Shown piece after piece: positions 7,887 through 27,503 of a DNA stretch of 64,000 bases (positions within the stretch are counted from its first letter, which is position 1; every line of letters begins with the position of its first letter). The stretch covers positions 793 to 64,792 of the forward strand of contig PKFB01000015.1 of the NCBI GenBank assembly GCA_002919305.1, written 5' to 3'. Below the pieces are notes generated by a model that was given only the letters and a program-made list of their open reading frames with translations, searched no databases and was not told where the DNA came from. This stretch comes from Actinomycetales bacterium. GTDB taxonomy: Bacteria > Actinomycetota > Actinomycetes > Mycobacteriales > Micromonosporaceae. The position numbers and the translations under genes are program-made.

Positions 7887-8055
7887 CCCCAACGCCCGCA
7901 GTCGCTGACCGTCGCCCGACGGCACACCCCGGGTACGGCTCAGTCTGCCGTCAGGTCCCCGAAGCACGCTCCACACAGCGCCTGTGATCGCGGCCAGGGT
8001 TGCCTGCTCCGTTGCGCCGTCTCGGTTCGGATCGCCACTCCGTGCGTTCCCGCCC

Positions 8056-11913: not shown

Positions 11914-11924
11914 GCGTCGTGACG

Positions 11925-12635
11925 TTACCGCGAAACCGGCGCCACGCCAGACTCTCCACGGTGGACAAGAGAAAACGGCTCCGTTTCCGGTTCGGATACC
12001 GGCTGCGGCGCCTCCGAAGGCCGACGGCTCCGCAGCGGCCGCGCCGGCACGCCACCGGCCACCGTGTACTCCGGCAGGTCCCGAGTGACCACCGCTCCGG
12101 CGCCCACGACGCTGCCCCGCCCGATCCGCACCCCCCGGGTGACGACCACCTTGGTACCCAACCAGCAGTCAGGCCCGATCCGGACCGGACTTTTCACGAT
12201 GCCCTGGTCCTTCATGGGGATCTCAAGGTCCGTGGTCACATGATCAAAGTCGACGATGTAGACGTCGTCAGCGATCATGCAGGCCGCACCGATCTCCACA
12301 TCCAGATAGGCGTTGATGGTGACATCGGACGCCAGCACACACTTGTCCCCCACCCGCAGCGTCCCTTCATGTGCGCGCAGCGCGGTGCCGTCCCCTATGT
12401 GGGTCCACTTGCCCAGAATCAGCCGGCCGTATCCCCGGCGGGCGGTCAACTCCACCCTCTTGCCCAGGAACACCATCCCCTCGGTGACGATGTGGGGCTT
12501 GGTTAACCGGAGCCAGAACAAACGCCAGTACCGGATCAGATACCAGGGGGTGTACGCGCGGTGGCGCAACACCCACCGCACCGACGCCCACGTCAGGTAC
12601 CTGGCTTGCCGAGGATCACGCCGCCGAAACCACAT
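11925..12635 (-). CDS. Left-handed beta-helix (hexapeptide-repeat) acyl/acetyltransferase
   Basis: Hexapeptide repeats: IGDGTALRA, VGDKCVLASDVTI, IGAACMIADDVYI, IGPDCWLGTKVVV, IGRGSVVGAGAVV. Confidence 0.75.
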   Translation of the reverse strand: MWFRRRDPRQARYLTWASVRWVLRHRAYTPWYLIRYWRLFWLRLTKPHIVTEGMVFLGKRVELTARRGYGRLILGKWTHIGDGTALRAHEGTLRVGDKCVLASDVTINAYLDVEIGAACMIADDVYIVDFDHVTTDLEIPMKDQGIVKSPVRIGPDCWLGTKVVVTRGVRIGRGSVVGAGAVVTRDLPEYTVAGGVPARPLRSRRPSEAPQPVSEPETEPFSLVHRGESGVAPVSR

Positions 12636-12644
12636 ATCTGGAGG

Positions 12645-13565
12645 TCATTTAATGCCGGTGATAAGGACGTTGTAGAAGAACTCCTTAGGCACCAGGTGAC
12701 GGAGCACGCGCGCGTCCACCGCCGAGAGGATCTGCCAGGTGCGGTAGGCGAACATCGCCCAGTTCCACCCCAGCTTTTCACGGGGGACCGCCGCTTCAAA
12801 GGTACGCACCGGCCACCCGAACATCGCCGCGGTCAGCTCCTCGGTCGCCACCTTCACCTCGCGGGCGCCCGCCGCTTTGGCGGTCGCGGCGAGCTCGTCG
12901 GGATCAAAGGTGTGCAGGTCCACCACGGCCTCCAACGCCGCGGCCGCGCTGGACTCGTCCAACTCACGTTGCGGACGCCGCCATCCGGTCAGCCCAGGCA
13001 GTCGCGTCAGGTTCGTGGTGGCCCACCAGGTCAGCTGCCCCAGTCGCCGGGCGTACCAGTCACCGATCCGGGTCGGCTCCCCCGCGAACACGAAACGCCC
13101 GCCGGGTTTGAGGACCCGCAGTACCTCACGGAACGCCGCCTCCACATCCGGGATGTGGTGCAGGACCGCGTGCCCGACCACCAGATCCACCGCGTTGTCC
13201 TCAAACGGGATGCGCTCGGCGTCGGCGACCCGTCCGGAGACCTCCAGACCGAGCACCTCGGCGTTCCGCAGCGCCACCTGAACCATCCCCGGCGAGATAT
13301 CGGTGACGAAGCCGCGCTCTACCACCCCCGCCTGCATCAGGTTGAGCAGGAAGAACCCGGTACCGCACCCCACCTCCAGGGCCGTCGGATATGGCCATCC
13401 CTCACGCCCCGCGATGGTGATGAACCGATCCCGGGCGTAGGAGATGCACCGTTCGTCATAGGAGATCGACCACTTGTCCTCGTAGGTGTCGGCCTCCCAG
13501 TCGTGGTACAGCACATTCGCGCGCTTGGGGTCCTCGCGGGCGGCGTTGACCTCGTCCCAACTCAT
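12645..13565 (-). CDS. Class I SAM-dependent methyltransferase
   Basis: Motif I ALEVGCGTGFF, plus LVVGHAVLHHIPD and LKPGGRFVF. ATGA overlap with the upstream enoyl-CoA hydratase stop. Confidence 0.8.
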   Translation of the reverse strand: MSWDEVNAAREDPKRANVLYHDWEADTYEDKWSISYDERCISYARDRFITIAGREGWPYPTALEVGCGTGFFLLNLMQAGVVERGFVTDISPGMVQVALRNAEVLGLEVSGRVADAERIPFEDNAVDLVVGHAVLHHIPDVEAAFREVLRVLKPGGRFVFAGEPTRIGDWYARRLGQLTWWATTNLTRLPGLTGWRRPQRELDESSAAAALEAVVDLHTFDPDELAATAKAAGAREVKVATEELTAAMFGWPVRTFEAAVPREKLGWNWAMFAYRTWQILSAVDARVLRHLVPKEFFYNVLITGIK

Positions 13566-14428
13566 CCAGTTCCCTCCCGCCGCTGATCCGCGGACTCCGG
13601 CTCTGATGCGCCGGCTCCACCGCGGGCACTCCCGAACCGCGGTTTCTCCTTGTTCATGAAGGCACGCATCCCGATCTGCTTGTCCTCGGTGGCGAACAAC
13701 GCCGCGAACAAGTGACTCTCCAGCGCCAGGCCGTTGGCGAGATCAACCTCCAATCCCTGGTCGATCGCGGCCTTGGCGGCCCGGAGCGCGTGGGCTGGCC
13801 CGTCGACGAACCTACGCGCGTACGCGTGAGCCGTCGTGAACACCTCAGCGGCGGGGACCACCTGATCAACCAGGCCGATAGCCAACGCCTCGTCGGCGGT
13901 GACGGTGCGGCCGGTGAAAATCAAATCCTTGGCGCGGGACGGGCCGATCAGACGCGGCAACCGCTGAGTGCCTCCCGCACCAGGTATCACCCCAAGCTTG
14001 ATCTCCGGTTGCCCCAGCTGGGCATCGGCGGCGCAGATCCGGAAGTCGCAGGCGAGCGCCAGTTCACAGCCGCCCCCCAGGGCGTACCCGGTGATCGCTG
14101 CCACCACCGGCTTAGGCAGCTTCGCGACGGTGTCGAAGGCGCTGGAGAGCGCGCTAGCCCGGGCGGCCATCTCGGCGTACCCCATATTCGCCATCTCTTT
14201 GATGTCGGCGCCGGCCGCGAAGACCTTCTCCCCGCCGTATACCACGACCGCCCGGATATCCTCACGTGCGCCCGCCTCGGTCGCGACCGCCCGCAGCTCC
14301 TCCTGCATCTGAATGTTCAGGGCGTTCATCGGGGGTCTGTCCAACCGGATCACTCCGACCCCGTCGGCGACCTCCAACCGCACGAACTCCCCCACCGGCG
14401 ACCTCCCTGTGGCGTCGGGCTGGGACAT
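13562..14428 (-). CDS. Enoyl-CoA hydratase/isomerase (crotonase family)
   Basis: VIRLDRPPMNALN, VVVYGGEKVFAAGADIKEM, AAITGYALGGGCELALACDFR. Confidence 0.9.
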   Translation of the reverse strand: MSQPDATGRSPVGEFVRLEVADGVGVIRLDRPPMNALNIQMQEELRAVATEAGAREDIRAVVVYGGEKVFAAGADIKEMANMGYAEMAARASALSSAFDTVAKLPKPVVAAITGYALGGGCELALACDFRICAADAQLGQPEIKLGVIPGAGGTQRLPRLIGPSRAKDLIFTGRTVTADEALAIGLVDQVVPAAEVFTTAHAYARRFVDGPAHALRAAKAAIDQGLEVDLANGLALESHLFAALFATEDKQIGMRAFMNKEKPRFGSARGGAGASEPESADQRREGTG

Positions 14429-14569: not shown

Positions 14570-14977
14570 TCAGCCTCGGTTGACGACCACCACCTGGTTC
14601 GCCTCACCGGTGGGGACGATCTCATGACCCAACGGGGTCAGCGACACCGGAATCAACTTGAAGTGCGCCACCCCCAAGGGAATGCCGATGATGGTGATGC
14701 ACAGGGAGAGTCCCGAGAGCAGATGTCCCAACGCCAGCCACCACCCGGCGACCAGGATCCAGATAACGTTGCCGATGGCCGAGGCCACACCGGCATCAGG
14801 CTTGGGGGCCAGGGTCCTGCCGAACGGCCACAACGCGTAATTGGCCATTCGGAACGCGGCGATGCCGAACGGGATCGTCACGATCAGCAGGCAGCAGATC
14901 AGTCCCGCAAGCGCATACCCCAGCGCCATGAACAAACCGCCGAATACCAGCCAGAGCACATTCAGGATCAGTCTCAT
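14570..14977 (-). CDS. YccF-domain inner membrane protein
   Basis: 135 aa with duplicated motifs NVLWLVFGGLFMALGY and NVIWILVAGWWLALGH...ITIIGIPLG, typical of YccF. Confidence 0.8.
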   Translation of the reverse strand: MRLILNVLWLVFGGLFMALGYALAGLICCLLIVTIPFGIAAFRMANYALWPFGRTLAPKPDAGVASAIGNVIWILVAGWWLALGHLLSGLSLCITIIGIPLGVAHFKLIPVSLTPLGHEIVPTGEANQVVVVNRG

Positions 14978-15046: not shown

Positions 15047-15871
15047 TTACCCCAGACGCGCGGCCAAAGCGACGGTGCGGCGGGCCGCCGCCACCATCGC
15101 ACGGTCGGCGAATCGTCCGTCCGGTAACACCACGGTGCCCGACTGACGCAGTTCAGCCTCCTCCAGCGCCGCCAGCAGCTCCGTAGCGCGCTCCACCTCC
15201 GCGGGGGACGGCCGGAAAGCCTCGACAATCACCGGTAGTTGGCGGGGGTGCAGGGCGGCACGGCCGAGGAAACCTAATCGTCTGCCGAGACGGCAGGATT
15301 CGGCCAGTCCGGCTTCATCGGCCACATTGGGGTACACCGACATAGCCGGCGGCCCCAGCTCCGCCGCCGCAGAGGCCACCACGATGCGGCTCCGGGCCCA
15401 GGCCAACCCCGCGTCATCGGTCACGTTGAGGTCAGCGCGCAGATCGGCTTCTCCCAGCCCGATCCCGGTCACCCAGGGGTGCGCCCGAGCGATCTGATAC
15501 GCCGATTCCACCCCGACCGCCGACTCCAACAGACAGTACAGCTCTGTTGGGGTATCAAGCCGCCTGGCGACCTCCACCACGTCACCGGGTGCCTGGACCT
15601 TCGGCAGACGCAGCCCAGACAACCCGGGCGCCCTCGCCACCGCTTCTAAGTCGGCCAGCAGCTCCGGGCCGGCTAACTCACCGACCCGGACCGTCACCGG
15701 GACCGGATGCGGCTGGGTCAGAAACTCCGCCACCGCACGCCTGGCGTACTCCTTACGGGACGGCGCCACCGCATCCTCTAAGTCCAAAATCACCACATCG
15801 GCGCCGCTGTCCACGGCTTTGACGAACCGATCAGGTCGGTCTCCGGGCACGTATAACCAGGTCAGACGCAT
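15047..15871 (-). CDS. CitE-like CoA-ester lyase (HpcH/HpaI aldolase / citrate lyase beta family)
   Basis: RLTWLYVPGDRPDRFVKAVDSGADVVILDLEDAV is the CitE signature. I prefer ATG 15871, which shares one base with the upstream TGA (TGATG), over the TTG at 15874. Confidence 0.85.
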   Translation of the reverse strand: MRLTWLYVPGDRPDRFVKAVDSGADVVILDLEDAVAPSRKEYARRAVAEFLTQPHPVPVTVRVGELAGPELLADLEAVARAPGLSGLRLPKVQAPGDVVEVARRLDTPTELYCLLESAVGVESAYQIARAHPWVTGIGLGEADLRADLNVTDDAGLAWARSRIVVASAAAELGPPAMSVYPNVADEAGLAESCRLGRRLGFLGRAALHPRQLPVIVEAFRPSPAEVERATELLAALEEAELRQSGTVVLPDGRFADRAMVAAARRTVALAARLG

Positions 15872-17064
15872 CAAATCACTCCCCGCTCACGCAGCGCCCC
15901 GATCTCCGCAGCGGTCAGCCCCGCCTCCGTCAGCACCTCATCGGTGTCGGCTCCGTGTGGTCGCCCCGCGAACCGAATGGCCCCCGGGGTCTCCGACAAC
16001 CGGAAGATGAGGTTCTGCATAGTGATCGGCCCCAGCTCGGAGTCATCCACGGTGATCGCTGTCTGCAGCGCGGTGTACTGCGGATCGGCGAGGATGTCCC
16101 GCACGTCGTACACCGGGGCGACCGCGGCCTCGGCCTTCTCGAAGGCCTCCACCACCTCCTGTCTGGTGTGGCGCCCCACCCACTCGGCGACGGCCGCGTC
16201 CAACTCGTCGGCGTGCGCGGCCCGCCCCCGGCCGGTCGCGAACCACGGCTGCTCGATCAGATCCGGCCGCCCCACCAGCTGCATCACCCGTTCGGCGATG
16301 CTTTGCGCGCTGGTTGACACCGCCACCCATTTGCCATCCGCGGTGCGGTAGGTGTTCCGGGGAGCGTTGTTACTGGAGCGGTTCCCCAGACGGGGCTGCA
16401 CGTAGCCGAGCTGGGTGTACCAGGTCAGGTGCGGCCCCAACAGCGCCATGATGGGCTCAATGATGGCCAGGTCAATCACCTGCCCACGTCCGGTCTGCTG
16501 CCGGGCGGCGAGGGCGACCATGACGGCGTACGCGGTCGCCAACCCGGTGATTCCGTCAGCGAGCCCGAATGGCGGCAAGGTGGGTGGCCCGTCCGGCTCC
16601 CCGGTGTAGGCGGCGAAGCCGCTCATCGCCTCCGCGAGGGTGCCGAAGCCGGGGCGACGCGCGTACGGCCCCGTCTGCCCGAAACCGGTAACCCGGGCCA
16701 GCACCAGCCCCGGGTTGTTCGCGCTCAGGGCCTCATACCCCAATCCCCACCGCTCCAAGGTGCCGGGCCGGAAGTTCTCGATGACCACGTCGGCCTGCTC
16801 CGCCAACCGCCGCAGTACCGCCGCACCTTCCTGAGTGGACAGATCGAGGGTCATCGTGCGCTTGTTGCGCCCCAGGACCTTCCCCCACAGACCCACACCG
16901 TTCTTACTGGGACCGTGCCCTCGGGCGGGATCGGGTTTGCGAGGGTGTTCGATCTTCACCACGTCAGCCCCGAAGTCCCCCAGGAAGGCACCAGCCATCG
17001 GCCCAGCGAACAGAGTCGCCAGCTCCAGTACTCGCAACCCCCGCAATGGAGTTGGCGTGCTCAT
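15871..17064 (-). CDS. Family III (CaiB/BaiF) CoA-transferase
   Basis: LRGLRVLELATLFAGPMAGAFLGDFGADVVKIEHP. Start moved to ATG 17064 (GGGGGAGGA upstream), giving an ATGA overlap with the preceding gene's stop. Confidence 0.85.
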   Translation of the reverse strand: MSTPTPLRGLRVLELATLFAGPMAGAFLGDFGADVVKIEHPRKPDPARGHGPSKNGVGLWGKVLGRNKRTMTLDLSTQEGAAVLRRLAEQADVVIENFRPGTLERWGLGYEALSANNPGLVLARVTGFGQTGPYARRPGFGTLAEAMSGFAAYTGEPDGPPTLPPFGLADGITGLATAYAVMVALAARQQTGRGQVIDLAIIEPIMALLGPHLTWYTQLGYVQPRLGNRSSNNAPRNTYRTADGKWVAVSTSAQSIAERVMQLVGRPDLIEQPWFATGRGRAAHADELDAAVAEWVGRHTRQEVVEAFEKAEAAVAPVYDVRDILADPQYTALQTAITVDDSELGPITMQNLIFRLSETPGAIRFAGRPHGADTDEVLTEAGLTAAEIGALRERGVI

Positions 17065-19142
17065 TCCTCCCCCTTTTCTGTCAAATCGACCGCGCATCGG
17101 AACCCGACCCACGCCGAGCGGGTCAGACCGGCACCGAGCAGCAGCAACTTGGCGCTCACTTGAGGTGGCTGCGGGCCGCCGTCGAAGTACCAGTCGGATC
17201 CCTCGGCCCGCCACGCCGCGCCGCCCTTGAGCATCACGAAGCGGGTACGCCCGTCGCTGTGTTCACTCTCGGTCCAGTTCCACACCAGGGGGTGACGTCG
17301 TTGGATGAGTCCCGCCTCGGCCGCCACCTGCCACTCATCCTCAGTGGGCAGGCGCCAGCCGGCCCAGGCGGCGTACGCGCGGGCGTCCGCCAAATCCACG
17401 TAGGTCACCGGCTCGTCTTCGGTCCCGGGCACCGGACGCTCGTCCACCCAGTGGGCCAGAAACCGGTCGGGGTGGCGCGGGCGATAGCCGGTGGCGGTGA
17501 GGAACTCCAGATATTCGGCGTTACTGACCTCTCGCACCCCGATCCCGACGTTCCCCAGCTCCACGGTGCGGATCAGGGTCTCCATGTGATGGAGGCGGGG
17601 TGGCAAAGGCTTCCATTCATTGACATACGGAGCGCCTCCGTACATCCCGGTCTCCCGGGCGCGGTACCGGACCGTCAACTGTCGCCGGCCCGCCGGTATG
17701 GCCACCATCCCGTCCGGAAGCGTGGAGGCGGGGGCCGCCGGGACTGGGCGTCGGATCGCGATCCGATCCGGGAACGTGGCGTCCGGATCCAGCGCTGTCC
17801 CTGTCAGCGCAGGCGGCGGGGTTCCGGGCGGCACCGCGAGAACCGCGGCGATTCCCCGGGCCGGCAGCCGTCCTCCGATGACGGTGTCGGACTCGGACCG
17901 GCATACCTCCAGCTGAGCTCCGATGGCCAGCTCGTACCAGTCCCAGTCCCGTTCCCGACCTGCCCGTGCTGTCTCCCCGGCCGGGTCCTCCTGCTGTCTC
18001 CCCACCCGCAGCCACGGGCCGGACCATTCCTCATCAGCCCGGTTCACGACCGTCCATAAGGTCGCGTCGGCACGCCGCCATCGGGAGGCGTACACCGGTG
18101 CTTCCGCCCCGGGGTGGTCAGCCAGCGGGGTCCACTCCCCCTCGGTGAAGTGGTCGGTGAAGGCCCGCTGCACCGGCAGCATGGCACGCAGCAGCGAACG
18201 ATCCCGCGCGCTCCAGCCCACCCAGGCGCCGAAAACGACGTCCCATATCAAGATCCCGCAGCCGTTGAGCCACGCCGACTGCAGCTCCGCCGTGTGATCA
18301 CGGTGCCACCGTCGGGTGTGGTGCAGCATGTGCCGCCGCTCGAACCATTTGGCCCGCAGCACCCCGGGAACGTCGGAGTCGGCGAACCATTGCGCCCATG
18401 ACATGGGGTGATCGCAGATTCGAGCCAGCGGCAGCCGGGACTCCGATTCCAAAGCGACGCCAGGGCGTGCCGCATCCAGCACATGCCGCAGCGCCGCGCC
18501 GCCCTCTTTGAGGGTGTCCAGGAAGACACCGTCGGCATCCAGCCAGGCGACCAGCTGCCCCAGAGCGGTGAAGTCGTCGACCGGTTCCCGCTGGGTCCCT
18601 CCATCCCACGGGTTGTAGTCGATGAAGACGCGTACTCCACGCCGCCGCAGGGCCGCGACCAAGTCGGGCAGCCCAGGTACCTGCCGGTAGAAGTCGAATT
18701 GGTTACGGTCGTCCAACCCGATGACGGGGTAAGCGTGCCAGAGCACCACCCCGTCCAGACCCCCATAGTCACGCTCAGCGGCGTCGAGGAACGCGTCCGG
18801 CGTGAACTCCCCCCGCTCATGGTCGTACAGCGCCTCATCCCACAACCAGACCAGCGCGACGGCGTAGCAGGACGGAATCCACGCGAACTCCGCACGCCGG
18901 TACAGGGCGTCGTCGTAGCGCAGTCGACGCCGGGCATCGGCGCGCCACGCGGCCAGCCGGCGCCGCCAGGTCGGCCACTGGGCCGGATCATCAGGGGCCG
19001 CGAAGATTTTCGCCTCATCTAGGCCGCTGAGATCATCCGTCGCCGCATCGACGTCTCGTGCGCCCCCGGAGGTGCTCTCCGGCAGCGGAACCTCGGTCGG
19101 CCGGTCAATCGGCCGCGGAATGTAGGGGTTAAATCTGCTCAC
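17061..19142 (-). CDS. Two-domain protein: N-terminal TIM-barrel glycoside-hydrolase-like region fused to a C-terminal FGE-sulfatase (SUMF1) domain
   Basis: 693 aa. N-terminal part: GVRVFIDYNPWD, DADGVFLDTLKEG. C-terminal part: WRLPTEDEWQVAAEAG, LVWNWTE, LKGGAAW, VGFRCAV. GTG start overlaps the kinase stop (GTGA). Confidence 0.7.
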   Translation of the reverse strand: MSRFNPYIPRPIDRPTEVPLPESTSGGARDVDAATDDLSGLDEAKIFAAPDDPAQWPTWRRRLAAWRADARRRLRYDDALYRRAEFAWIPSCYAVALVWLWDEALYDHERGEFTPDAFLDAAERDYGGLDGVVLWHAYPVIGLDDRNQFDFYRQVPGLPDLVAALRRRGVRVFIDYNPWDGGTQREPVDDFTALGQLVAWLDADGVFLDTLKEGGAALRHVLDAARPGVALESESRLPLARICDHPMSWAQWFADSDVPGVLRAKWFERRHMLHHTRRWHRDHTAELQSAWLNGCGILIWDVVFGAWVGWSARDRSLLRAMLPVQRAFTDHFTEGEWTPLADHPGAEAPVYASRWRRADATLWTVVNRADEEWSGPWLRVGRQQEDPAGETARAGRERDWDWYELAIGAQLEVCRSESDTVIGGRLPARGIAAVLAVPPGTPPPALTGTALDPDATFPDRIAIRRPVPAAPASTLPDGMVAIPAGRRQLTVRYRARETGMYGGAPYVNEWKPLPPRLHHMETLIRTVELGNVGIGVREVSNAEYLEFLTATGYRPRHPDRFLAHWVDERPVPGTEDEPVTYVDLADARAYAAWAGWRLPTEDEWQVAAEAGLIQRRHPLVWNWTESEHSDGRTRFVMLKGGAAWRAEGSDWYFDGGPQPPQVSAKLLLLGAGLTRSAWVGFRCAVDLTEKGEE

Positions 19143-20170
19143 AATGTGTCACTCCTGGCCGAAACCTCTCGACGCTGATGAGTGGGGAGGTATGTGGCGG
19201 CGTACAGCTGATCAATGTCGGCGCGGGTAGGCAGGGCGGTGCTGGCGCCGAGACGCTGCGCGCAGCAGGCGCCGGCGGCGCAGGCCCACCGCACCGCGTC
19301 GCGTAGCTCGCGTCCTTCCGCCCACGCCACCGCCAACGCGCCGGTGAAGGCGTCACCGGCCGCCGTGGTATCGACGGGGGTGATACGCGGCGCCGGCACC
19401 CGACAGGCCGCGGTGTCACGCGCCGCGTACACCGCGCCCGCCGCGCCTAAGGTCAGAGCGACTCGGGGCACCTTCGCCAGCAGCGTGTCAAGCAGACCGC
19501 GCACCCGCGTCGGCACCGCCTCCGCTCCGTCCGCGTCTGAACCTGCTCCGTCTGAACCCGCTCCGTCCTGTCCGGCCGCCCCGTGGGCCAGGATCGCCGC
19601 CTCCCCCTCGTTGACCACCAGCAGGTCGACCAGTTCAAGCAGGGCGTCGTTCAACGGACGGGCCGGCGCCGCGTTGAGGATCACCCGGGTCCCACCCTCC
19701 CGGGCCGCCGCCAACGCGCTGTGGACGCCGCTGACCGGGATCTCCAACTGACACAGCAGCACATCGGCGGCGGCGATGGCCGTCCGGTCCGGCTCCGTTA
19801 ACCGTTCCAGAGTGGCGTTCGCACCGGCCGCGACCAGAATGCTGTTCTCGCCACCATCATCGACCATGATCAACGCGACGCCTGAGGGACCGGCCGCCGT
19901 CCGCAGCTGTGTGATGTCCACGCCGGCCTGTTGAAGCGTGAGGCGCAGTTCAGGACCGAAGCTGTCCTCACCTACGGCACCGATGAAGGACGTAGCGGCG
20001 CCCGCCCGCGCCGCAGCCACCGCCTGATTGGCGCCTTTTCCTCCGGGTACGGTGGTGAAGTCGCGGCCCAGCACCGTCTCCCCGGGTCGCGGCAGCCGCG
20101 CCGCCCGCGCCACCAGGTCCATGTTGACGCTGCCGACGACCACGACCCGGGCTTGGCTCACGCGCTGCAT
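19139..20170 (-). CDS. PfkB-family carbohydrate kinase, ribokinase-like
   Basis: VVVVGSVNMDLV...GETVLGRDFTTVPGGKGANQAVAAA and the C-terminal DTTAAGDAFTGAL. Start moved to ATG 20170 (MQRVSQARVVVVGS). Confidence 0.85.
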   Translation of the reverse strand: MQRVSQARVVVVGSVNMDLVARAARLPRPGETVLGRDFTTVPGGKGANQAVAAARAGAATSFIGAVGEDSFGPELRLTLQQAGVDITQLRTAAGPSGVALIMVDDGGENSILVAAGANATLERLTEPDRTAIAAADVLLCQLEIPVSGVHSALAAAREGGTRVILNAAPARPLNDALLELVDLLVVNEGEAAILAHGAAGQDGAGSDGAGSDADGAEAVPTRVRGLLDTLLAKVPRVALTLGAAGAVYAARDTAACRVPAPRITPVDTTAAGDAFTGALAVAWAEGRELRDAVRWACAAGACCAQRLGASTALPTRADIDQLYAATYLPTHQRREVSARSDTL

Positions 20171-20360
20171 ACAGCTCTCCCTTCCGCACTCCCAGCCCAG
20201 TTCCCCCTGAGCCTTGGGCGGCGACGGCCGTGGAGCCTTCCCATCTCCCCACGGCCCGCCCGGCCACCCACCCGACGACCATCTCCTCGTCACCGGCCGA
20301 CTCCCCGCAGGCACCGCCCCTGACCGGAGCCGCTCCGGTTTGATCACCAAGCCGACATCG

Positions 20361-21716
20361 TCAGGATCCGACCAGCGCCACGGTTCGGGCGGCCAGAGCG
20401 TCAAAGCCGATGCCGTCGAATCCGACGAGGCTGGTGTGCAACCGGTTGGCCAACGGGGCGGTCCACTCCGTCGGGAGCGCCTGCGCCCCGACCAGCCCGC
20501 CCACCACGGAGCCCACCGTCGCTCCGTTGGAGTCGGTGTCCCAGCCGCCGGAGACCACCGCGCAGATGGACCTGACCGGATCCCCCTGGCCCCACGCCAA
20601 GGCGGCGGTCACCAGGGCCGCGTTGTTGATCACGTGCACCCAGTGCAGGTCCCCGTAGCGTTCATAGAGCGCATCCACCACGGCTTCGAAGTCCGTGGCA
20701 CCCACCGCCGCCCGACGCGCGAACCGCACCGCCGACGCCAGTCGACTGTCAGGCGGCAGCAGCGCCGCGGCCGCGTCCAGCACGCTGTCCACATCGGAGG
20801 CCACCAGGGCTGCTGAGGCCAGCCCGGCGGCGTACATGGCTCCGTAGATGCCGTTACGTACATGGCTGATCCGGGCGTCCCGCCACGCCAGCTCCGCCGC
20901 CGCGGCGGGGTTACCGGGGTTGACCCACCCGTAGACATCGGTGCGGATCTGCGCCCCGATCCATTCCCGGAACGGGTTGCGGGTGGTGGCGGTGGCCGGT
21001 GGCGTCAGCCCCAGCAGCAGATTCCGGTACGCCACACGTTCAGCGGTGAAAACCCGACCGCCGGGCAGCCACTCCAGCCAACAGGTGGCGACGTCCTCAC
21101 TGGTGAAATCCCGTCCCCGGGTCTCCAGCAGCCGCAGCGCCAGCAGCGCGAAGTTGAGGTCGTCGTCCTCGGGCATGCCGTTGATGTTTTCGGCCAGGCT
21201 GGTCGCGCGGCTGCGCCGGTTCCACGGCCACCGGGCCGCCACCTCAGGAGGCAGCCCGACCTCGGTGAAGTATCCCGACAGGGGCCAACGCCCCGTCGCC
21301 TCCAGGATTTCGCGGATCCCCTCCCGAGGGATCTTCTCCACCGGTTTGCCGAGCAGGCAGCCGACCGCCCGCCACAGCCAAGCCCCGTGGATCCTGTCAG
21401 CCAGATCCGGCCCCGGCCCAGGCAGCCCGACATCAGCCGGCCATCCCGCGCACAGCGCCTCAAGATCATCGGGTTCCCGATCGGACCCTGGGGTCGGTAG
21501 GGCGTCCAACTCGTCCAGCAACTCGGCGGCGAGGGTACGCAGGTGCGCGGGCGCGGGATCGACCGAGGCGCCGCCGACGGGTGGGTGAACGGAGCCACCC
21601 GCCGCCCGCCACCGGGCCTCGATCCGGTCAACGGCGTCCACGGAGCGCCCTACCTGACGGCTGGTGACCAGCTCGTGCCGGAGCAAATCCTCCGGCTGTA
21701 CCCAGGTCAGTCTCAT
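20361..21716 (-). CDS. ADP-ribosylglycohydrolase-family protein with an N-terminal extension of about 105 aa and a degenerate first metal motif
   Basis: C-terminal GGWDTDSNGATVGSVVG motif. The N-terminal motif reads AVGCLLGKPVE rather than GDALG. Start at ATG 21716 (MRLTWVQPEDL, GGAGG upstream) overlaps the upstream stop (ATGA). Confidence 0.75.
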   Translation of the reverse strand: MRLTWVQPEDLLRHELVTSRQVGRSVDAVDRIEARWRAAGGSVHPPVGGASVDPAPAHLRTLAAELLDELDALPTPGSDREPDDLEALCAGWPADVGLPGPGPDLADRIHGAWLWRAVGCLLGKPVEKIPREGIREILEATGRWPLSGYFTEVGLPPEVAARWPWNRRSRATSLAENINGMPEDDDLNFALLALRLLETRGRDFTSEDVATCWLEWLPGGRVFTAERVAYRNLLLGLTPPATATTRNPFREWIGAQIRTDVYGWVNPGNPAAAAELAWRDARISHVRNGIYGAMYAAGLASAALVASDVDSVLDAAAALLPPDSRLASAVRFARRAAVGATDFEAVVDALYERYGDLHWVHVINNAALVTAALAWGQGDPVRSICAVVSGGWDTDSNGATVGSVVGGLVGAQALPTEWTAPLANRLHTSLVGFDGIGFDALAARTVALVGS

Positions 21717-22894
21717 CCCGCCTCCTTCGCGGAGTGACTCCCCTCCGCGACCCCTTGGAGCAGGGCGTCGAATCGTTCGGCCCGGACACGCCACCGTTGG
21801 GTGTCCCGGGCGTACACCTCCCGCGCCACCTCGGCTAAGGCCTGGGCCAGGCCGGTCAGGTCCAACCGGCTGGCCCGGGTCACCTGCTCTGTCCACTCGG
21901 CCGGCACTGCGGCGGAGCCACCCAACGCCCCAGCCATGGCCCCCACCATCGTGGCGATGGAGTCGGCGTCTCGGCCGTAGTTGGTGGCGCCCAGCAACGC
22001 CTCCCGGGCATTACCCCGCGCCACCACCAACATCCCCAACGCGATCGGGAGTTCTTCGATGGAGTGCAGCCGGCTGGGGCGCCGCGCCCCCAGTCCGGGA
22101 TTTCGGTAGTCCTCGCCCACCGTGTCGAACGGAGCCATGGCGGCCCGCAGCGGGGCCAGCGCCTCCCGCCAGTCGGTGTACCGCTGTGCGGTGGAGCAGA
22201 CCGCTTCGATCGCCGAACGGGTGCCGTCCTTGGCCAGTTCCAGGCAGGCCGCCACCACATCGTCGACGGTCGCGGCGGCAGTCATCGCCGCCGCGACACC
22301 AGCCGCGAAAACTCCGGCCGCCTCCCGTCCGTAACTGGACTGGTGGGCGCCGGCGATCTCAATCGCCTCGGCGTAGGCCCCCGCCGGATTACCGGCGTTG
22401 ACCACGCCGACCGGGGCCATATACATCGCCGCCCCGCAGTTGACGATGTTGCCGACCCCGGCCTCCCGCGGATCGGCGTGGCCGTGCATCAAGCGCCCCA
22501 CCATGAACCGCTCGGCCAACGCCAGGCGGTGAAAGGCCACCGTTTCGCGCTCCAGGTCCGGCACGAAGGTGGGGCGCCCGACCAAATCCGGAATCAGATG
22601 CTCGGCGATGTCATAGGCATCCAAGTGGTCGCGTTTCCGCGTATAGACCCGGATCAGCGCGTGGGTGAGCAGCGTGTCATCGGTGATATGACCGTCACCC
22701 TTGTGATACGGCGCCGTCGGACGGGCGGTCTGCCAGTCGGGGTGGAACGGTGGCGCGGGGCCGTCCACCCACCCGGCGTACCGCTGCCGGATCTGATCGG
22801 GTAACGCTCCCTCGGTGGCGCCGCCTAAAGCGTCACCGACAGCCGCGCCGGTCAAACATCCAACGATCTTGTCTTCCAGAAGGGTCACCGTCAC
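21713..22894 (-). CDS. ADP-ribosylglycohydrolase-family protein (canonical motifs)
   Basis: IVGCLTGAAVGDALGGATEG and NYGRDADSIATMVGAMAGALGG. GTG start overlaps the binding-protein stop (GTGA). Confidence 0.85.
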   Translation of the reverse strand: MTVTLLEDKIVGCLTGAAVGDALGGATEGALPDQIRQRYAGWVDGPAPPFHPDWQTARPTAPYHKGDGHITDDTLLTHALIRVYTRKRDHLDAYDIAEHLIPDLVGRPTFVPDLERETVAFHRLALAERFMVGRLMHGHADPREAGVGNIVNCGAAMYMAPVGVVNAGNPAGAYAEAIEIAGAHQSSYGREAAGVFAAGVAAAMTAAATVDDVVAACLELAKDGTRSAIEAVCSTAQRYTDWREALAPLRAAMAPFDTVGEDYRNPGLGARRPSRLHSIEELPIALGMLVVARGNAREALLGATNYGRDADSIATMVGAMAGALGGSAAVPAEWTEQVTRASRLDLTGLAQALAEVAREVYARDTQRWRVRAERFDALLQGVAEGSHSAKEAG

Positions 22895-24171
22895 CGCAAC
22901 ACCTGCTCGCCGCCTTCAATCAACCGTTGTCCCAGCTCCTCCAGGGAGATCGCGTTCGCGAAGTACTCCTGGAACGCCGGGGTGGCGATTCTGGTCCGCC
23001 ACTCCGCCAGCTCCACCACCCGCTGGAACGGAGCCAGCACCAGGTTGTCGACGCTGGCCACCGCGATATCCCAGCCGTTCTCCCCGCCGGTTTCGGCCAG
23101 CACCTGCTCACCAGCGCTCCGTCCGGTGGGGACCAGCCAGTCCCCCATCGCCAGCCGGGCCATGTTCTCCGGAGCCAGGAAGAAATCGATGAACTGCATC
23201 GCCTCTTCGGGGTGCTCGGACTGCGCCGCGATCGACAACGTCTGCGGGTTCCCCGCCTGCTCCTGGCTGTCACCCAACAGCGGCGGCAGCGTCACCCACT
23301 GGAACCCCTCGGGGGCCTGCTCCACCATCTGCTGACGCAGGTAGATGGAGCCGGGCAGCATCGCGTACTGGCCGGCGAAGAAACCAGGCAACGGATCCGT
23401 CCCACCCATGCTGAGCGCGTCGGGATCCGCCGACTGGTCCCGGTACACCATGTCGTGGATCCGCTGAGGCACCTCAGCCTCGGCGTCCCCGAAGACCACC
23501 TCGGGCCGGTCCCCGTCGAATGAGAAGTACTCCCCGCCGAAGTTCAGGCTGAGATTGAGGATCCGGTTGACCGGCTGACGCAGCGCCCAGGCCACCCCGT
23601 ACCGCTCCGAGGTGGTCAAAGCCCGGGCGTGCTCAGCGAACTCATCCCAGGTCCACGGGTCGTCCACCGTGGGGATCGGGATGTTCGCCTCCTCCAACAG
23701 GGCCCGGTTGGCGATCACGACCTGCGACTCCAGCAGGAACGGCACCCCGAAGATCGCCCCGTCAGGGGTGGTGACGGTCTCCCAGATCGCGTCGCCGATC
23801 TCCTCACGCAGCGCGTCGGTCAGCAGATCCGACAGGTCCGCCAGGTAGCCGTCCCGGGCAAACTGGCTGGCCAGCGCCGCCTCGTAGTGGATGATGTCCG
23901 GCGCGTCTCCGCCTTCGAACCCGGTCAACAGCTGGTCATGCACCGAATCCCAGCTGCCCTGGATGTACTCGATCTGGATCTCGGGGTGCTCCCGGTTCCA
24001 CTGCTCGACCAGCTCCTCATTGGCCTGCACCGAGGCTTCCTGCCAGGCCAGGCTTAAAAACTGCAGCGTGACCGGACCGTCACCGGACCCCTCGTCGTCG
24101 CCGCCACAGGCGGCCAGTGACGTCAGGGCTAAACCAGCCACAGCGGTGGCGGCCGCGAATCTGCGTAACAT
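22891..24171 (-). CDS. ABC sugar transporter, extracellular solute-binding lipoprotein (family 1)
   Basis: Start moved to ATG 24171. MLRRFAAATAVAGLALTSLAACGG gives a lipobox, with GAGGAGGAA upstream. The remainder looks like an SBP_bac_1 sugar binder. Confidence 0.8.
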   Translation of the reverse strand: MLRRFAAATAVAGLALTSLAACGGDDEGSGDGPVTLQFLSLAWQEASVQANEELVEQWNREHPEIQIEYIQGSWDSVHDQLLTGFEGGDAPDIIHYEAALASQFARDGYLADLSDLLTDALREEIGDAIWETVTTPDGAIFGVPFLLESQVVIANRALLEEANIPIPTVDDPWTWDEFAEHARALTTSERYGVAWALRQPVNRILNLSLNFGGEYFSFDGDRPEVVFGDAEAEVPQRIHDMVYRDQSADPDALSMGGTDPLPGFFAGQYAMLPGSIYLRQQMVEQAPEGFQWVTLPPLLGDSQEQAGNPQTLSIAAQSEHPEEAMQFIDFFLAPENMARLAMGDWLVPTGRSAGEQVLAETGGENGWDIAVASVDNLVLAPFQRVVELAEWRTRIATPAFQEYFANAISLEELGQRLIEGGEQVLR

Positions 24172-24328
24172 CGCTTCCTCCTCAGGTGGGGGACTAGGTT
24201 GGGGGACTGAGGTGCGGACGCGCCGCACAGACGCGTCCAAGGCTGTGGATGCCCACATGGAGGGCGGCTGGGGGAGCCACCGACCCGACGGGGCCCACAA
24301 CAGACCAGATGGGGGTACGCGGAACCGA

Positions 24329-25165
24329 TCAGCCTTTGACCGCCCCGGCCAATGCGCCGGAGGTCAGGCGCCGTTGCAGGAACCCGAAGAACACCAAACT
24401 GGGAATCGTGGCCAGCAGCGAACCCGCCGCCAGCGGCCCCAGCCGTGTGATGCCCTCAATGCCAACGAAGCGCGCCAACGCCAACGGCAACGTCGCCAAC
24501 TCCGGTTGCCGCAACAGCACCAAGGCGAAGAAGAACTCATTCCACGCCGAGATGAAGGCGAACAGCGCCGCCGCGACGACCCCCGGCACCAGCAGGGGCG
24601 CCACCACCAGCCGCAGCGTCTGCAATCGGGAGGCTCCGTCGACCGCCGCCGCCTCCTCCACTTCCCGGGGGACGGAGCGGACGAAGCTCTGCAGCATCCA
24701 CAACGCAAAGGGCAGCGACCAGACCACGTACACCAGCAGCAGGCCGAACAGACTGTTGGTCAGCTCCACCTGCCGCAGGATCATGAACATTGGGATCACC
24801 AGCAGGATGAACGGGAACAGCTGGGACAGCAGAATCCATCCTGTCGCGGCGGTGTTGAGCCGAGTCCGGTAACGCGCCAGGGCGTACGCGGCCGGCAACG
24901 CGATCACCACCGTCGCCACCGCCGAGCCCAACGCGACGATCAGGCTATTGAACGCCGCACGTACCAGATCCTGCTCCGTAAAGGCCGAGATGTAGTTGTC
25001 CAGGGTGGGGTGGTGCGGGATGAGCGTGGGGTGGATCTCCACCATCTCCCGAGGCTGCTTAAACGATGTGGACAGCATCCACAGCAACGGGAACGACAAG
25101 AACGCCAGGTAGCCCACGAGCACCAGGTACTGCAGCCCACGGACCAGGGGATGGGTCTTGATCAT
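24329..25165 (-). CDS. ABC sugar transporter permease (MalG/BPD_transp_1 type)
   Basis: 278 aa, 6 TM, with EAA loop VEEAAAVDGASRLQTLRLVVAPLLVPG. Confidence 0.9.
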   Translation of the reverse strand: MIKTHPLVRGLQYLVLVGYLAFLSFPLLWMLSTSFKQPREMVEIHPTLIPHHPTLDNYISAFTEQDLVRAAFNSLIVALGSAVATVVIALPAAYALARYRTRLNTAATGWILLSQLFPFILLVIPMFMILRQVELTNSLFGLLLVYVVWSLPFALWMLQSFVRSVPREVEEAAAVDGASRLQTLRLVVAPLLVPGVVAAALFAFISAWNEFFFALVLLRQPELATLPLALARFVGIEGITRLGPLAAGSLLATIPSLVFFGFLQRRLTSGALAGAVKG

Positions 25166-25232
25166 CGGGCCTCCCGGATCGGTGACGTCGCGTGTCGTAC
25201 GGGCGGTAGCGGCAAACTCACCGTCGTCGGCC

Positions 25233-26159
25233 TCATGTCGCCTCCCGCATCCGCCGACGCAGGTACAGGCTGAGCAGGGCGACGATGATCAGCACCATCG
25301 CGCCTCCCATCGCGGCGGCGTAGCCGAAGTTGCCGTACCGGAAGGCCTCCTCGTACGCGAAGAGCATCGGCAGCATGGTTCGGCCACCAGGCCCACCGGC
25401 CGTCAACACATAGACCAGGCCGAAGGAATTGAAGTTCCAAATGAAATCCAAAGACGTGATCGCGATGATCACGGGGCGCAGCTGCGGCACCGTGATGTGC
25501 CAGAAGCGCCGCCACGCGCTGGCTCCGTCCATCGCGGCCGCTTCGTGCAGCTCGTTGGGGATCCCCTGCAGCCCGGCCAGCAGCACGATGGTGGTCTGCG
25601 GCATCCCCGCCCAGACCCCCACCACGATCACGGCGGGCAACGCTGTGGAGAAGTCACCGAGCCAGTTGGTGCTCAGCCCGTCCAGGCCGATCCGGTAGAG
25701 CAATTCGTTCAGCAGACCGGCGTCAGGGTGGTAGACGAGCTGCCACATGATGCCGACGATGACCGGCGGCATCGCCCACGGCACCAGCGCGAGGGTCCGG
25801 GCGAGCCAACGGAGACGGAGCGGCTGTTGCAGCAGCAACGCCAGCCCGAAGGCGAGCACGAACTGAATACCGGTGACCGCGAAGGCCCAGATCAGACCGA
25901 TGCGGAAGGACTCCCAAAACAGGGTGTCCTCCAGCAACTGTCGGTAGTTGTCCAGCCCCACGAAGTGGGTGTCCTGGTTCAGTCCGGCCCGGGCGTCGGT
26001 AAAGCCCAAATACAGCCCGTTGAGCAGAGGGATGACCGATAACAGCACCACCGGCAGCAGGGCCGGGATGACCAACAGGTACGCGTAGCGGGTGTCCCGC
26101 GTCGCTAATGCGTTCCGACGCCGCTCCTCCACGGCGCGGTGCTCCACGACCACGCTCAT
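25233..26159 (-). CDS. ABC sugar transporter permease (MalF type)
   Basis: 308 aa with EAA loop LHEAAAMDGASAWRRFWHITVPQLRP. The ATG overlaps the LacI stop (ATGA). Confidence 0.9.
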   Translation of the reverse strand: MSVVVEHRAVEERRRNALATRDTRYAYLLVIPALLPVVLLSVIPLLNGLYLGFTDARAGLNQDTHFVGLDNYRQLLEDTLFWESFRIGLIWAFAVTGIQFVLAFGLALLLQQPLRLRWLARTLALVPWAMPPVIVGIMWQLVYHPDAGLLNELLYRIGLDGLSTNWLGDFSTALPAVIVVGVWAGMPQTTIVLLAGLQGIPNELHEAAAMDGASAWRRFWHITVPQLRPVIIAITSLDFIWNFNSFGLVYVLTAGGPGGRTMLPMLFAYEEAFRYGNFGYAAAMGGAMVLIIVALLSLYLRRRMREAT

Positions 26160-27184
26160 GGCCGCACCGCCCGACTGGAGGCCCGGATCACCAGACGAGG
26201 CGGGACGGTGACCCTCGCCGGTGGTCGATCCGGGTCGACCAAACGGTCCAAAAGCAGCTGCGCAGCGGTCTGTCCCCGCTCTTCTGAACCCAGCGACACA
26301 CTGGACAGCTGCGGGAACGACATCCGCGCCAGGTCGGTGTCGTCCATGCCGACCAGCGCGATCTCCTCCGGCACCCGGATACCGCGGCTGAGGAGGGTGT
26401 GCAGCGCCCCCACCGCGATCAGGTCGTTGGCGCAGAAGATCGCGTCCGGGCGTACCCGGTCCAACAGCCGCTCCGTTGCCCGTCGACCGTCCTCATATCG
26501 GAAGTCCCCGATCTCGATCAGCGCATCGTCGGCGGGGAGGCCGAGCCGGTCCCGGGCAGCGAGGTACCCGGCCTGCCGCGCCGCTCCAGGAACGGTGTCC
26601 AGCGGCCCGTTGATCAACGCGATGCGGCGCCGGCCACTCTCCACCAGGTGGCTCAGGGCGAGCCCGACACCGCTGTGCGAGTCGGTCCGGACGTTGTCGA
26701 CCTCAACGTCGTCGGGCAACGCACCGACGACCACCACCGGCCCGGCGGCCCGGCTCAGGGCCTCCAGATGCGCGTCGGTCACCCGGATGGGGACGAGCAC
26801 CAACCCGTCGACGTAACGCTTGGCCAGCCCGTCCAACAGTTCGACCTCGCCGTCGGGGTCGGCTCCGGTGGCGTGGACCACCAGTCGGTATCCGGCCCGC
26901 CGGACGACGGTCTCCATGGCCCGCATCATCGCCACATAGACCGGGTTGCCGATGTCTTCGACAGCCAGCGCCAACATGTCGGTGCGGCGGGACCGGAGGG
27001 ACCGGGCCACGGCGTTGGGCACGTACCCCACCTTGGCGGCGGCGGCGCGGACCCGTTGCTCGGTCTCTGGGCTGGCTCCCAGTCCATTGAGGACACGGGA
27101 CGCCGAAGCGATCGAGACTCCCGCCAGTTTGGCCACGGTATGCACCGTGGGAGCGCGGTTTCCCTGTAAACGTTTACGCGCCAC
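26156..27184 (-). CDS. LacI/GalR-family transcriptional regulator
   Basis: N-terminal HTH TVHTVAKLAGVSIASASRVLNG...VGYVPNAVARSLRS followed by a periplasmic-binding-protein-like fold. GTG start. Confidence 0.9.
   Translation of the reverse strand: MARKRLQGNRAPTVHTVAKLAGVSIASASRVLNGLGASPETEQRVRAAAAKVGYVPNAVARSLRSRRTDMLALAVEDIGNPVYVAMMRAMETVVRRAGYRLVVHATGADPDGEVELLDGLAKRYVDGLVLVPIRVTDAHLEALSRAAGPVVVVGALPDDVEVDNVRTDSHSGVGLALSHLVESGRRRIALINGPLDTVPGAARQAGYLAARDRLGLPADDALIEIGDFRYEDGRRATERLLDRVRPDAIFCANDLIAVGALHTLLSRGIRVPEEIALVGMDDTDLARMSFPQLSSVSLGSEERGQTAAQLLLDRLVDPDRPPARVTVPPRLVIRASSRAVRP
27165..27178. promoter_or_regulatory. LacI-type operator half of a pair: TGTAAACGTTTACG (13/14 palindromic), inside the first codons of the regulator gene
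   Basis: Read directly. Together with its flanks, CCCTGTAAACGTTTAC (27162-27177) is the exact reverse complement of 27210-27225. Confidence 0.55.
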
Positions 27185-27208
27185 GCCGCACGCTCCTCCT
27201 GCCCAGGG

Positions 27209-27222
27209 TGTAAACGTTTACA
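27209..27222. promoter_or_regulatory. Perfect 14-bp palindrome TGTAAACGTTTACA about 25 bp upstream of the LacI start; candidate auto-operator
   Basis: Read directly. The CG-centred 14-bp palindrome matches LacI/GalR operator design. Its centre is 44 bp from the first site. Confidence 0.6.
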
Positions 27223-27503
27223 GGGCAGTGTGGTGCGGGTTACAGACCCCTGTCAAGAAATCCACCGACCCCTGAAATGCGATCGTGACCAGCGGAAACG
27301 CTCTGTCCGAGATCCTGTCCGATCCTGCCGCCAGGCACCATCCAGCCGCACAGATCCGGCTTGTCAGGACAGACCATCGGCGCACCCGCACACCACACCC
27401 GACGCTGCGCCCCAGGGCAACGCCGCGGCGCTACCGGACACCACCGAGGCAGCCACGTTCTCGGTACGCGGCGTCAACCATCACTGAACGCGAGCGACAA
27501 CCG

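Follow-up and report, generated by a model that had tools for sequence, protein, structure and literature searches.

A widely conserved, LacI-headed ten-gene cluster with a proposed role in the scavenging of ribofuranose-bearing glycosides

Gene content, conservation and control of the cluster

We report on a cluster of ten genes in a window of 64,000 nucleotides (the whole stretch of DNA that was analysed, a piece of contig PKFB01000015.1 from a member of the Micromonosporaceae). In this high-GC DNA the genes for a LacI-family repressor and a sugar importer of the ATP-binding cassette (ABC) type are followed by genes for two proteins of the ADP-ribosylglycohydrolase (ARH) fold, here called ARH1 and ARH2, a ribokinase-like kinase, a protein of 693 amino acids (aa) and a CoA-transferase/lyase pair. 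The ten co-directional open reading frames (ORFs) are on the minus strand and span 15047-27184. Pfam families could be assigned to all of them, and independent gene calling on the source contig gave the identical ten genes. An initial annotation, made from the sequence alone, had named the same ten minus-strand genes and their families, and this part of it is borne out by Pfam and the ORF list. For comparison, one genome per GTDB species was scanned. Relatives of the 693-aa protein turned up in 489 genomes, of which the best 80 loci were extracted with 10-kb flanks. These loci (referred to by numbers with the prefix L where needed) were picked solely by similarity to the 693-aa protein and the majority are from Micromonosporaceae. 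The features of the cluster are, in the direction of transcription:

26156..27184, minus strand: LacI-family repressor, 342 aa, GTG start; Pfam LacI and Peripla_BP_3; syntenic in 74 of the 80 loci
25233..26159, minus strand: ABC permease 1, MalF/UgpA-like, CUT1 type; Pfam BPD_transp_1
24329..25165, minus strand: ABC permease 2, MalG/GlcU-like; Pfam BPD_transp_1
22891..24171, minus strand: solute-binding lipoprotein of the CUT1 oligosaccharide/glycoside type; Pfam SBP_bac_1; lipobox LTSLAAC
21713..22894, minus strand: ARH1, hydrolase of the ARH fold, 393 aa; Pfam ADP_ribosyl_GH
20361..21716, minus strand: ARH2, divergent ARH paralog, 451 aa; Pfam ADP_ribosyl_GH
20171..20360, minus strand: 190-bp spacer between the ARH2 and kinase genes, lineage-specific
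19139..20170, minus strand: ribokinase-like PfkB kinase, 343 aa; Pfam PfkB
17061..19142, minus strand: 693-aa glycoside hydrolase (GH)-like/FGE-fold protein; only Pfam match FGE-sulfatase, aa 520-628
15871..17064, minus strand: family III (CaiB/Frc/SUGCT-type) CoA-transferase, 397 aa; Pfam CoA_transf_3; syntenic in 78 of the 80 loci
15047..15871, minus strand: CitE/HpcH-type acyl-CoA lyase, 274 aa from an ATG; Pfam HpcH/CitE; syntenic in 78 of the 80 loci

Many of the genes overlap. Direct reading of the sequence gave ATGA overlaps between the LacI and permease 1 genes (26156-26159), the ARH1 and ARH2 genes (21713-21716) and the genes for the 693-aa protein and the CoA-transferase (17061-17064), GTGA overlaps between the binding protein and ARH1 genes (22891-22894) and between the kinase gene and that of the 693-aa protein (19139-19142), and a TGATG at the CoA-transferase/lyase junction (15873-15869), such that every overlapping junction listed in the initial annotation was matched. 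No gene for an ABC ATPase was found within the cluster. For the binding protein, a PDB comparison pointed to no more than CUT1 oligosaccharide binders in general (E of about 1e-21 at best), which is not informative about its ligand.

Each of the nine other genes is present in 74-78 of the 80 loci with order and orientation kept (tblastn with all window proteins), and the complete set in about 77, while none of the flanking genes of the window is kept in more than 11 of them. The 693-aa protein itself has hundreds of full-length relatives with 57-65% identity. Beyond the Micromonosporaceae the cluster is present in Catenulispora (L042), in Phytoactinopolyspora of the Jiangellales (L045), and likewise in Allokutzneria (Pseudonocardiales), Nocardioides, and Plantibacter and Okibacterium (Micrococcales), and in partial form in a Candidatus Limnocylindria metagenome-assembled genome of the phylum Chloroflexota (L071). 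Short junctions are also a feature of the orthologous loci, with median gaps of -16 to +10 bp at seven of the nine junctions; the looser ones are permease 2/binding protein (median 50 bp) and 693-aa gene/CoA-transferase (median 10.5 bp), where the gap widens if an esterase gene is inserted. Moreover, several of the genes occur as fusions: PfkB precedes the 693-aa homolog within one polypeptide in at least 18 sequence clusters, those of Nocardioides and Actinophytocola among them, ARH2 is fused to its N-terminus in Plantibacter, and an esterase can be fused to its C-terminus. The ten genes are one co-conserved functional unit, shared by actinobacteria of the soil. The initial annotation had made its proposal depend on co-conservation in other genomes, and this proved strong, both across the 80 loci and in further orders.

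In Dactylosporangium darangshiense (L021) the operon is interrupted by a gene for an IS605-family TnpB (OrfB_IS605 and Cas12f-like TNB; 7872-9842), which is on the opposite strand between the genes for the kinase and the 693-aa homolog. In Nocardioides a second LacI and CUT1 ABC operon lies directly downstream of the cluster (L089 15810-22808) and encodes a PF10091 'Glycoamylase' protein as well as a GH39 protein.

Two predicted operators were found at the head of the cluster:

27209..27222, minus strand: predicted LacI operator O1, perfect 14-bp palindrome TGTAAACGTTTACA, about 37 bp upstream of the LacI start
27165..27178, minus strand: predicted operator O2, one mismatch; overlaps LacI codons 3-7, 44 bp from O1

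These are the two operator-type sites found in the window, where 0.24 would be expected, and of the 74 loci that include a LacI start, roughly 68 have sites corresponding to O1 and O2, at about -37 and +6 of that start. Further sites in the 22-kb loci amount to one extra upstream site (L074) and one internal site (L080), with no others. Read by eye, a TTGACA hexamer resembling a -35 element (27251-27256) and a weak -10 element may precede O1. Scans for promoters and terminators within the cluster gave numbers at chance level (1 vs 0.7 expected; 5 vs 5.3 expected). The location of the operators solely at the cluster head fits one LacI-controlled promoter at this position.

The spacer between ARH2 and the kinase had been described as a gap with a hairpin, and a division of the cluster into two transcription units had been considered. 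The gap is real, but the hairpin is not significant in that the predicted fold of 20171-20360 is not better than that of shuffled sequence (z = -1.56). Since the ARH2/kinase junction is at most 10 bp in about 70% of 77 orthologous loci, we regard the spacer as a lineage peculiarity. With a lineage-specific spacer, conserved operators only at the cluster head and internal scans at chance level, we do not retain the division into two units. The spacer is G-rich, and a TTG-started upstream ORF extension (to 20404) that crosses it does not have the look of a protein.

At the distal end of the cluster, the CoA-transferase matches its Pfam family over the full length (412 bits; profile positions 1-366 of 366). 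Its NCBIfam and PDB neighbours are CaiB/BaiF, Frc and SUGCT, with scores below every equivalog cutoff (258 vs 750). The lyase (Pfam 102 bits, cutoff 25) is nearest to RipC/Ccl, the CitE of Mycobacterium tuberculosis and CLYBL. Its RipC score is 154 against a cutoff of 375, and its PDB neighbours are 3qll (RipC), 8khl, 6aq4 (M. tuberculosis CitE) and 5vxc (CLYBL). This pairing of a CoA-transferase with a CitE-type protein resembles itaconate and C4-C5 dicarboxylate routes, and the two genes are missing beside distant relatives of the 693-aa protein, as would be expected if two unrelated modules were merely adjacent, i.e. a ribose/glycoside uptake system (LacI to kinase, perhaps including the 693-aa protein) and an independent organic-acid pair for itaconate, citramalate or malate. 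We consider this unlikely, because in 78 of the 80 loci and in four further orders the two genes come after the 693-aa gene, the CoA-transferase gene overlaps the 693-aa gene by 4 nt here (the median gap being about 10 bp unless an esterase gene is inserted), no operator or regulator of its own precedes the pair, and the cluster has no gene for an itaconyl-CoA hydratase. The CoA-transferase and the lyase may act on the aglycone of the imported compound.

A secreted PF00756 esterase, orthologous between loci, is encoded in 32 of the 80 loci (40%) and explains the approximately 2 kb of extra DNA in many of them; no ortholog is present in the 64 kb of this window. The esterase gene follows the 693-aa gene, or in Micrococcales the CitE gene (examples are L005 11944-14091, L089 12796-13755, L090 13177-15654 and L091 14337-16847). 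The proteins are 57-60% identical across orders, carry a Sec or twin-arginine signal (SRRQAL in L089) and often have SBBP β-propeller repeats. The insertion of this gene in many clusters points to a natural substrate that is masked by ester groups or bound to a polymer.

The ARH paralogs and the ribokinase-like kinase

Both ARH proteins score far above the Pfam PF03747 cutoff of 26.2 bits (ARH1 155.7 bits, ARH2 168.2 bits). They share 26% identity, and ARH2 has an N-terminal extension of 110 aa. Both paralogs have the motifs of the binuclear Mg/Mn site of ARH proteins, G..G...E, (T/E)DD and D-x-D-(S/T). Specifically, the motifs GDALGGATE, TDDT and DADS are intact in ARH1 and GKPVE, EDDD and DTDS in ARH2, and the motif residues are conserved in 77 of 77 ARH1 and 79 of 79 ARH2 orthologs. 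Judged by these motifs, both look catalytically competent. With respect to characterised families, the NCBIfam equivalog scores were 49 for Tri1 (cutoff 490) and 41 for DraG (cutoff 337), and ARH2 matched no family. The genes around them speak rather for a release of free ribose. The PDB matches of ARH1 are weak and at the level of motifs, and ARH2 gave no PDB sequence match.

The number of ARH genes varies among the clusters. Phytoactinopolyspora has four (two additional, L045 4470-6562) and Allokutzneria has three, of which one encodes a protein of 676 aa (L086 4573-6603).

For the kinase, the nearest family is TIGR02152 (RbsK), and the next-best, 5-dehydro-2-deoxygluconokinase, scores 91 bits. 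When aligned with Escherichia coli RbsK, the residues that bind ribose, N14, D16, G41, G42, K43, N46, E143 and D255, align with the kinase, and they are conserved in 79 of 79 kinase orthologs. PfkB kinases encoded beside distant relatives of the 693-aa protein (L087 and L088) are without N14 and D16. The kinase can hence be described as ribokinase-like, as had been suggested, with TIGR02152 as its nearest family and every ribose-binding residue retained.

The combination of ARH-fold proteins and a ribokinase could also be read as a system for the scavenging of ADP-ribose, NAD or nucleotides, or for de-ADP-ribosylation, with the ARHs acting as in DraG, Tri1 and ARH3. Pfam and NCBIfam do relate both proteins to ARH, DraG and Tri1, the ARH metal sites are intact, and the rus systems of Bacteroides support growth on ADP-ribose (bioRxiv 10.1101/574913). 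Against this stand the CUT1 sugar/glycoside type of the transporter, the lack in the cluster of genes for a Nudix protein, phosphatase, phosphodiesterase, macrodomain, ADP-ribosyltransferase toxin or nucleosidase, the requirement of the partner ribokinase for a free 5-OH on ribose, the presence of two to four ARH paralogs per cluster together with a glycosidase-like protein, and the weak, motif-limited similarity to characterised ARHs, with no PDB sequence match at all for ARH2. We therefore find a role in ADP-ribose metabolism rather improbable.

Could the sugar be a pentofuranose other than ribose, e.g. D-arabinofuranose from acylated fragments of cell-wall arabinan, with the ARHs as novel furanosidases? 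The accessory esterase is a PF00756 protein, and mycolyl/antigen-85-type and CE1 esterases are members of the same family; furthermore, one distant relative of the 693-aa protein adjoins a gene of GH116, a family that includes D-arabinofuranosidases. On the other hand, the kinase and its 79 orthologs retain all E. coli RbsK ribose ligands, and the cluster has no gene for a pentose isomerase or epimerase. In the structures of ARH3 and DraG, moreover, the metals bind the cis-2'',3''-diol of ribose, a diol which arabinose does not have. An arabinofuranose substrate is thus very unlikely in our view. In the reading that we prefer, the two ARHs would act on a riboside that is not a nucleotide.

The 693-aa protein

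An AlphaFold2 model of the 693-aa protein, built from 60 homologs (predicted local distance difference test score 87, predicted template modelling score 0.89), has a (β/α)8 barrel at approximately aa 90-340, with eight alternating β/α units at approximately aa 94-300, followed by a β-sandwich (about aa 350-437), a linker and a truncated FGE-fold domain (about aa 520-690). The N-terminal 500 residues gave no sequence match in the PDB, and a profile search of the PDB found the FGE-fold part alone. By structure, however, the best Foldseek matches in the PDB are GH13 enzymes (neopullulanase 1j0h, E 1.5e-11, and then branching enzymes), next followed by GH27/GH36 α-galactosidases and related barrels, all with probability 1.0.

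Two acidic residues of the barrel stand out in the model. D209, in the motif DGVFLD, is located directly after strand β4 (205-208), and E234 directly after β5 (230-233). Both are invariant in 81 orthologs, and a set of 50 distant homologs with approximately 30% identity shows no variation at D144, D204, D209 or E234. In enzymes of clan GH-H, the nucleophile and acid/base are located at positions of this type after β4 and β5, and D209 and E234 are hence candidate catalytic residues. The protein thus has in common with clans GH-H and GH-D (GH13, GH27/GH36) a (β/α)8 barrel that precedes a β-sandwich and an Asp/Glu pair after β4/β5, and its DGVFLD motif resembles region II of GH13. Unlike members of these clans, it is without a conserved Asp after β7 (D282 is present in 54 of 81 orthologs), and an FGE-fold domain at the C-terminus is obligatory in its family.

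The C-terminal approximately 170 residues share the motifs RLPTE.EW and GFRCA with the FGE/EgtB/SenA proteins (PF03781), and relatives of the 693-aa protein carry the database name 'SUMF1/EgtB/PvdO nonheme iron enzyme'. The Pfam FGE-sulfatase match covers profile positions 25-138 of 255. Compared with the FGE of T. curvata, about 24 residues replace about 87 between the conserved core and GFRCA, and among the approximately 60 missing residues is the loop in which both catalytic cysteines of FGE are located. These two active-site cysteines bind Cu(I) in FGE. In the 693-aa protein there is no Cys between aa 651 and 680, and at least 90% of the homologs (in sets of 11 and of 60) share no Cys other than C683, which is part of the terminal GFRC motif, so that the Cu-binding cysteine pair is absent. 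Pfam detected no DinB_2 domain, which provides the iron site in EgtB/OvoA/SenA, the NCBIfam scores were 49 bits for SenA (cutoff 420) and 40 bits for EgtB (cutoff 360), and no sulfatase gene is present in the cluster or its flanks. Compared with FGE, EgtB and SenA, the domain is thus shorter by at least approximately 60 residues and has no cysteine pair, DinB domain or sulfatase partner. The possibility that the 693-aa protein is a copper or non-haem-iron oxidative enzyme of the SUMF1/EgtB/PvdO type, in an operon for a sulfur- or selenium-containing or sulfated compound, would be in keeping with the Pfam match, the weak SenA and EgtB matches, the database names and one distant relative that is encoded beside a sulfatase gene, but is highly improbable given the partial match without the catalytic-cysteine loop, the single conserved Cys, the lack of a DinB_2 domain and of a sulfatase in the cluster, and the location of the invariant residues in the barrel, outside the FGE-fold domain.

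What had been taken as an FGE-domain fusion is accordingly better described as a GH-like (β/α)8 barrel and β-sandwich with a truncated FGE-fold part that has no catalytic cysteines. On the basis of the model we conclude that the 693-aa protein is probably a member of an undescribed glycosidase-like family with a barrel like those of clans GH-H/GH-D, and that its obligatory FGE-fold appendage can be described as lectin-like and is predicted to pack onto the barrel. A HMMER search with the N-terminal 500 residues found at least 1,485 representatives of 50%-identity clusters (E <= 1e-3) in several phyla. The FGE-fold domain is kept in 47 of 50 long distant members, and some distant members are secreted or lipoproteins, with dockerin, Ig or CHB_HEX_C modules, which is common among carbohydrate-active enzymes. 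Within this family we conclude that the clade of the window is a subfamily specialised for the present operon.

Distant members with about 30% identity (L084, L085, L087 and L088) are encoded in other sugar loci without ARH or CoA genes. Their neighbours are, in one case, GH97, sulfatase and GH127 genes (beside a Bacteroidota-like lipoprotein member), in others GH116 and a CUT1 ABC system, a GntR/UTRA regulator with a non-ribokinase PfkB, a DeoC-like aldolase (called by eye) and an ABC system, or such a regulator with a PhyH dioxygenase, a non-ribokinase PfkB and an ABC system. The GH-like/FGE-fold family seems to have diversified over several substrates.

Proposed pathway, related systems and significance

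The reading that we favour, with somewhat more confidence than doubt, is that the ten genes are one operon, repressed by LacI, for the breakdown of a glycoside or small oligosaccharide that bears ribofuranose and is imported. In many relatives, although not in this window, which has no esterase gene, a secreted esterase would in the first step release or de-acylate the compound outside the cell. The CUT1-type ABC system, i.e. the lipoprotein and the two permeases together with an ATPase encoded elsewhere, would then import it, and the two divergent ARH-fold hydrolases, with their intact metal motifs, would remove ribosyl groups. The freed D-ribose would be trapped by the ribokinase as ribose-5-phosphate, and the 693-aa protein would most likely cleave the remaining glycosidic bond. 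Finally, going by their families, the CoA-transferase may activate, and the CitE-type lyase split, a hydroxy-dicarboxylate of the malate, citramalate or 3-hydroxy-3-methylglutarate (HMG) type, and the products would be acetyl-CoA and a 2-oxo or aldehyde acid. The families, intact active-site motifs, fold, co-conservation, fusions and operator sites are what the sequences and the model show; which compounds are acted on, in which order, and where the acid comes from is our inference. The interpretation given in the initial annotation is broadly supported, except for the FGE label and the two transcription units.

Several points weigh against this reading. To our knowledge, ARH-fold enzymes have been characterised by experiment solely on ADP-ribosyl substrates. 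The TIGR02152 score of the kinase, 280.1 bits, is just below the cutoff of 299.65, and the Plantibacter cluster has no PfkB kinase. For the 693-aa protein, the TM-scores to solved glycosidases are 0.3-0.5 with 9-15% identity and aa 1-494 match no Pfam-A family at E <= 0.1; for these two reasons its hydrolase chemistry is deduced at the level of the fold. Part of the synteny is due to shared ancestry, since the loci were chosen via one gene and are mostly from Micromonosporaceae. The substrate of the CoA-transferase/lyase pair may also come from elsewhere than the imported molecule, and if the esterase acts outside the cell, an acid set free by it would not enter through this transporter.

As a more far-reaching version, the cluster might encode a new pathway for a natural product or glycan fragment so far overlooked as a nutrient of bacteria, namely a ribofuranosylated glycoside with a hydroxy-dicarboxylate, often ester-masked, in which the ARHs would be non-nucleotide ribofuranosidases, the 693-aa protein would found a GH family with its FGE-fold domain completing the active site, and sugar catabolism would be wired to the CoA-transferase/CitE pair. 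This we put forward tentatively, as possible rather than probable. As concrete substrates, bacillithiol-type GlcN-malate, methanopterin fragments, HMG-glycosides, succinylated arabinan, acyl-ADP-ribose and polymalate were considered and dropped, as the data do not discriminate between them.

Downstream of the cluster the window has a gene for a small membrane protein and a second tight, co-directional set of minus-strand genes (10267-14428):

14570-14977, minus strand: YccF-family inner-membrane protein, 135 aa; 69 bp downstream of CitE; found with the cluster in 4 of the 80 loci
13562-14428, minus strand: enoyl-CoA hydratase; downstream set
12645-13565, minus strand: S-adenosylmethionine-dependent methyltransferase; downstream set, 4-nt overlap
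11925-12635, minus strand: hexapeptide acyltransferase; downstream set
10267-11913, minus strand: thiamine diphosphate (ThDP) enzyme of the acetolactate-synthase/oxalyl-CoA-decarboxylase type; downstream set

The hydratase and ThDP genes are also found downstream of the cluster in L053, L054 and L069, and not in the other loci. The set from hydratase to ThDP enzyme is probably a separate acyl-CoA operon. The YccF, hydratase, methyltransferase, acetyltransferase and ThDP genes were rejected as members of the pathway, as they accompany the cluster in at most 4 of the 80 loci.

The initial annotation could not match the gene combination to any described pathway, and our search of the full-text literature gave none either, nor a description of the 693-aa family. 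The closest descriptions are a preprint on the rus loci and a paper on yegTUV. In the rus loci of Bacteroides, ribokinases and a transporter are accompanied by a changing complement of hydrolases, among which are ADP-ribosylglycohydrolases, esterases and a glycoside hydrolase without assignment (Glowacki et al., bioRxiv 10.1101/574913). Among the regulators of these loci the LacI type ranks second in frequency, and the preprint leaves their natural ribose-containing substrates open (bioRxiv 10.1101/574913). In both systems a single locus encodes ribose-liberating hydrolases along with a ribokinase, a transporter and a regulator. They differ in that rus imports by SusC/D and RusT and the present operon by a Gram-positive CUT1 ABC system, and in that the hydrolase set of rus is variable while that of the present operon is fixed, with two ARH paralogs and the GH-like/FGE-fold protein. 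Going by the description of rus, it is also set apart by having no GH-like/FGE-fold protein and no CoA-transferase/CitE pair. In E. coli yegTUV, YegT is a nucleoside-type transporter of the major facilitator superfamily (MFS), YegU belongs to the ARH family and YegV is a PfkB kinase, with GgaR/YegW as repressor (PMC10819704). This uncharacterised system likewise has one repressor of its own that controls a transporter together with an ARH-fold hydrolase and a PfkB kinase, but the transporter is MFS and not ABC, the repressor is of the GntR and not the LacI family, there is a single ARH, and a GH-like protein and a CoA module are lacking.

The CoA pair has its own relatives. The itaconate/C5-dicarboxylate route (Ict/RipA, Ich/RipB and Ccl/RipC) also couples a CoA-transferase with a CitE-family lyase, and M. 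tuberculosis CitE Rv2498c and human SUGCT and CLYBL are related to the pair. Unlike in the itaconate route, the scores are far below the equivalog cutoffs, there is no hydratase, and the pair is part of a sugar-uptake operon. Taken together, the operon is best classed as real and strongly conserved, and as a variant of ribose/glycoside scavenging whose central enzyme family is mis-annotated and undescribed.

Bacterial ARH-fold proteins are widespread and, apart from regulators of the DraG and Tri1 types, we know of none with an assigned metabolic role. In the present operon the recurrent ARH-PfkB pairing, seen also in yegTUV and rus, takes a form that is constant, broadly conserved and amenable to genetics. 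Its carriers include cultured Micromonospora, Nocardioides, Plantibacter and Catenulispora, and the operon's own binding protein and repressor offer a means of finding the ligand. If the more far-reaching proposal is true, ribofuranosidase activity on non-nucleotide substrates would be the first metabolic role for these ARH-fold proteins, and thousands of members of the 693-aa family would currently be mis-annotated as FGE or non-haem-iron enzymes. Correcting the names in this family, which comprises at least 1,485 clusters, would alter a large number of database entries and could give CAZy a further family. Finally, the direct link of a glycoside importer to a CoA-transferase/CitE pair is unusual and hints at acid-containing glycosides that are mineralised by soil bacteria.

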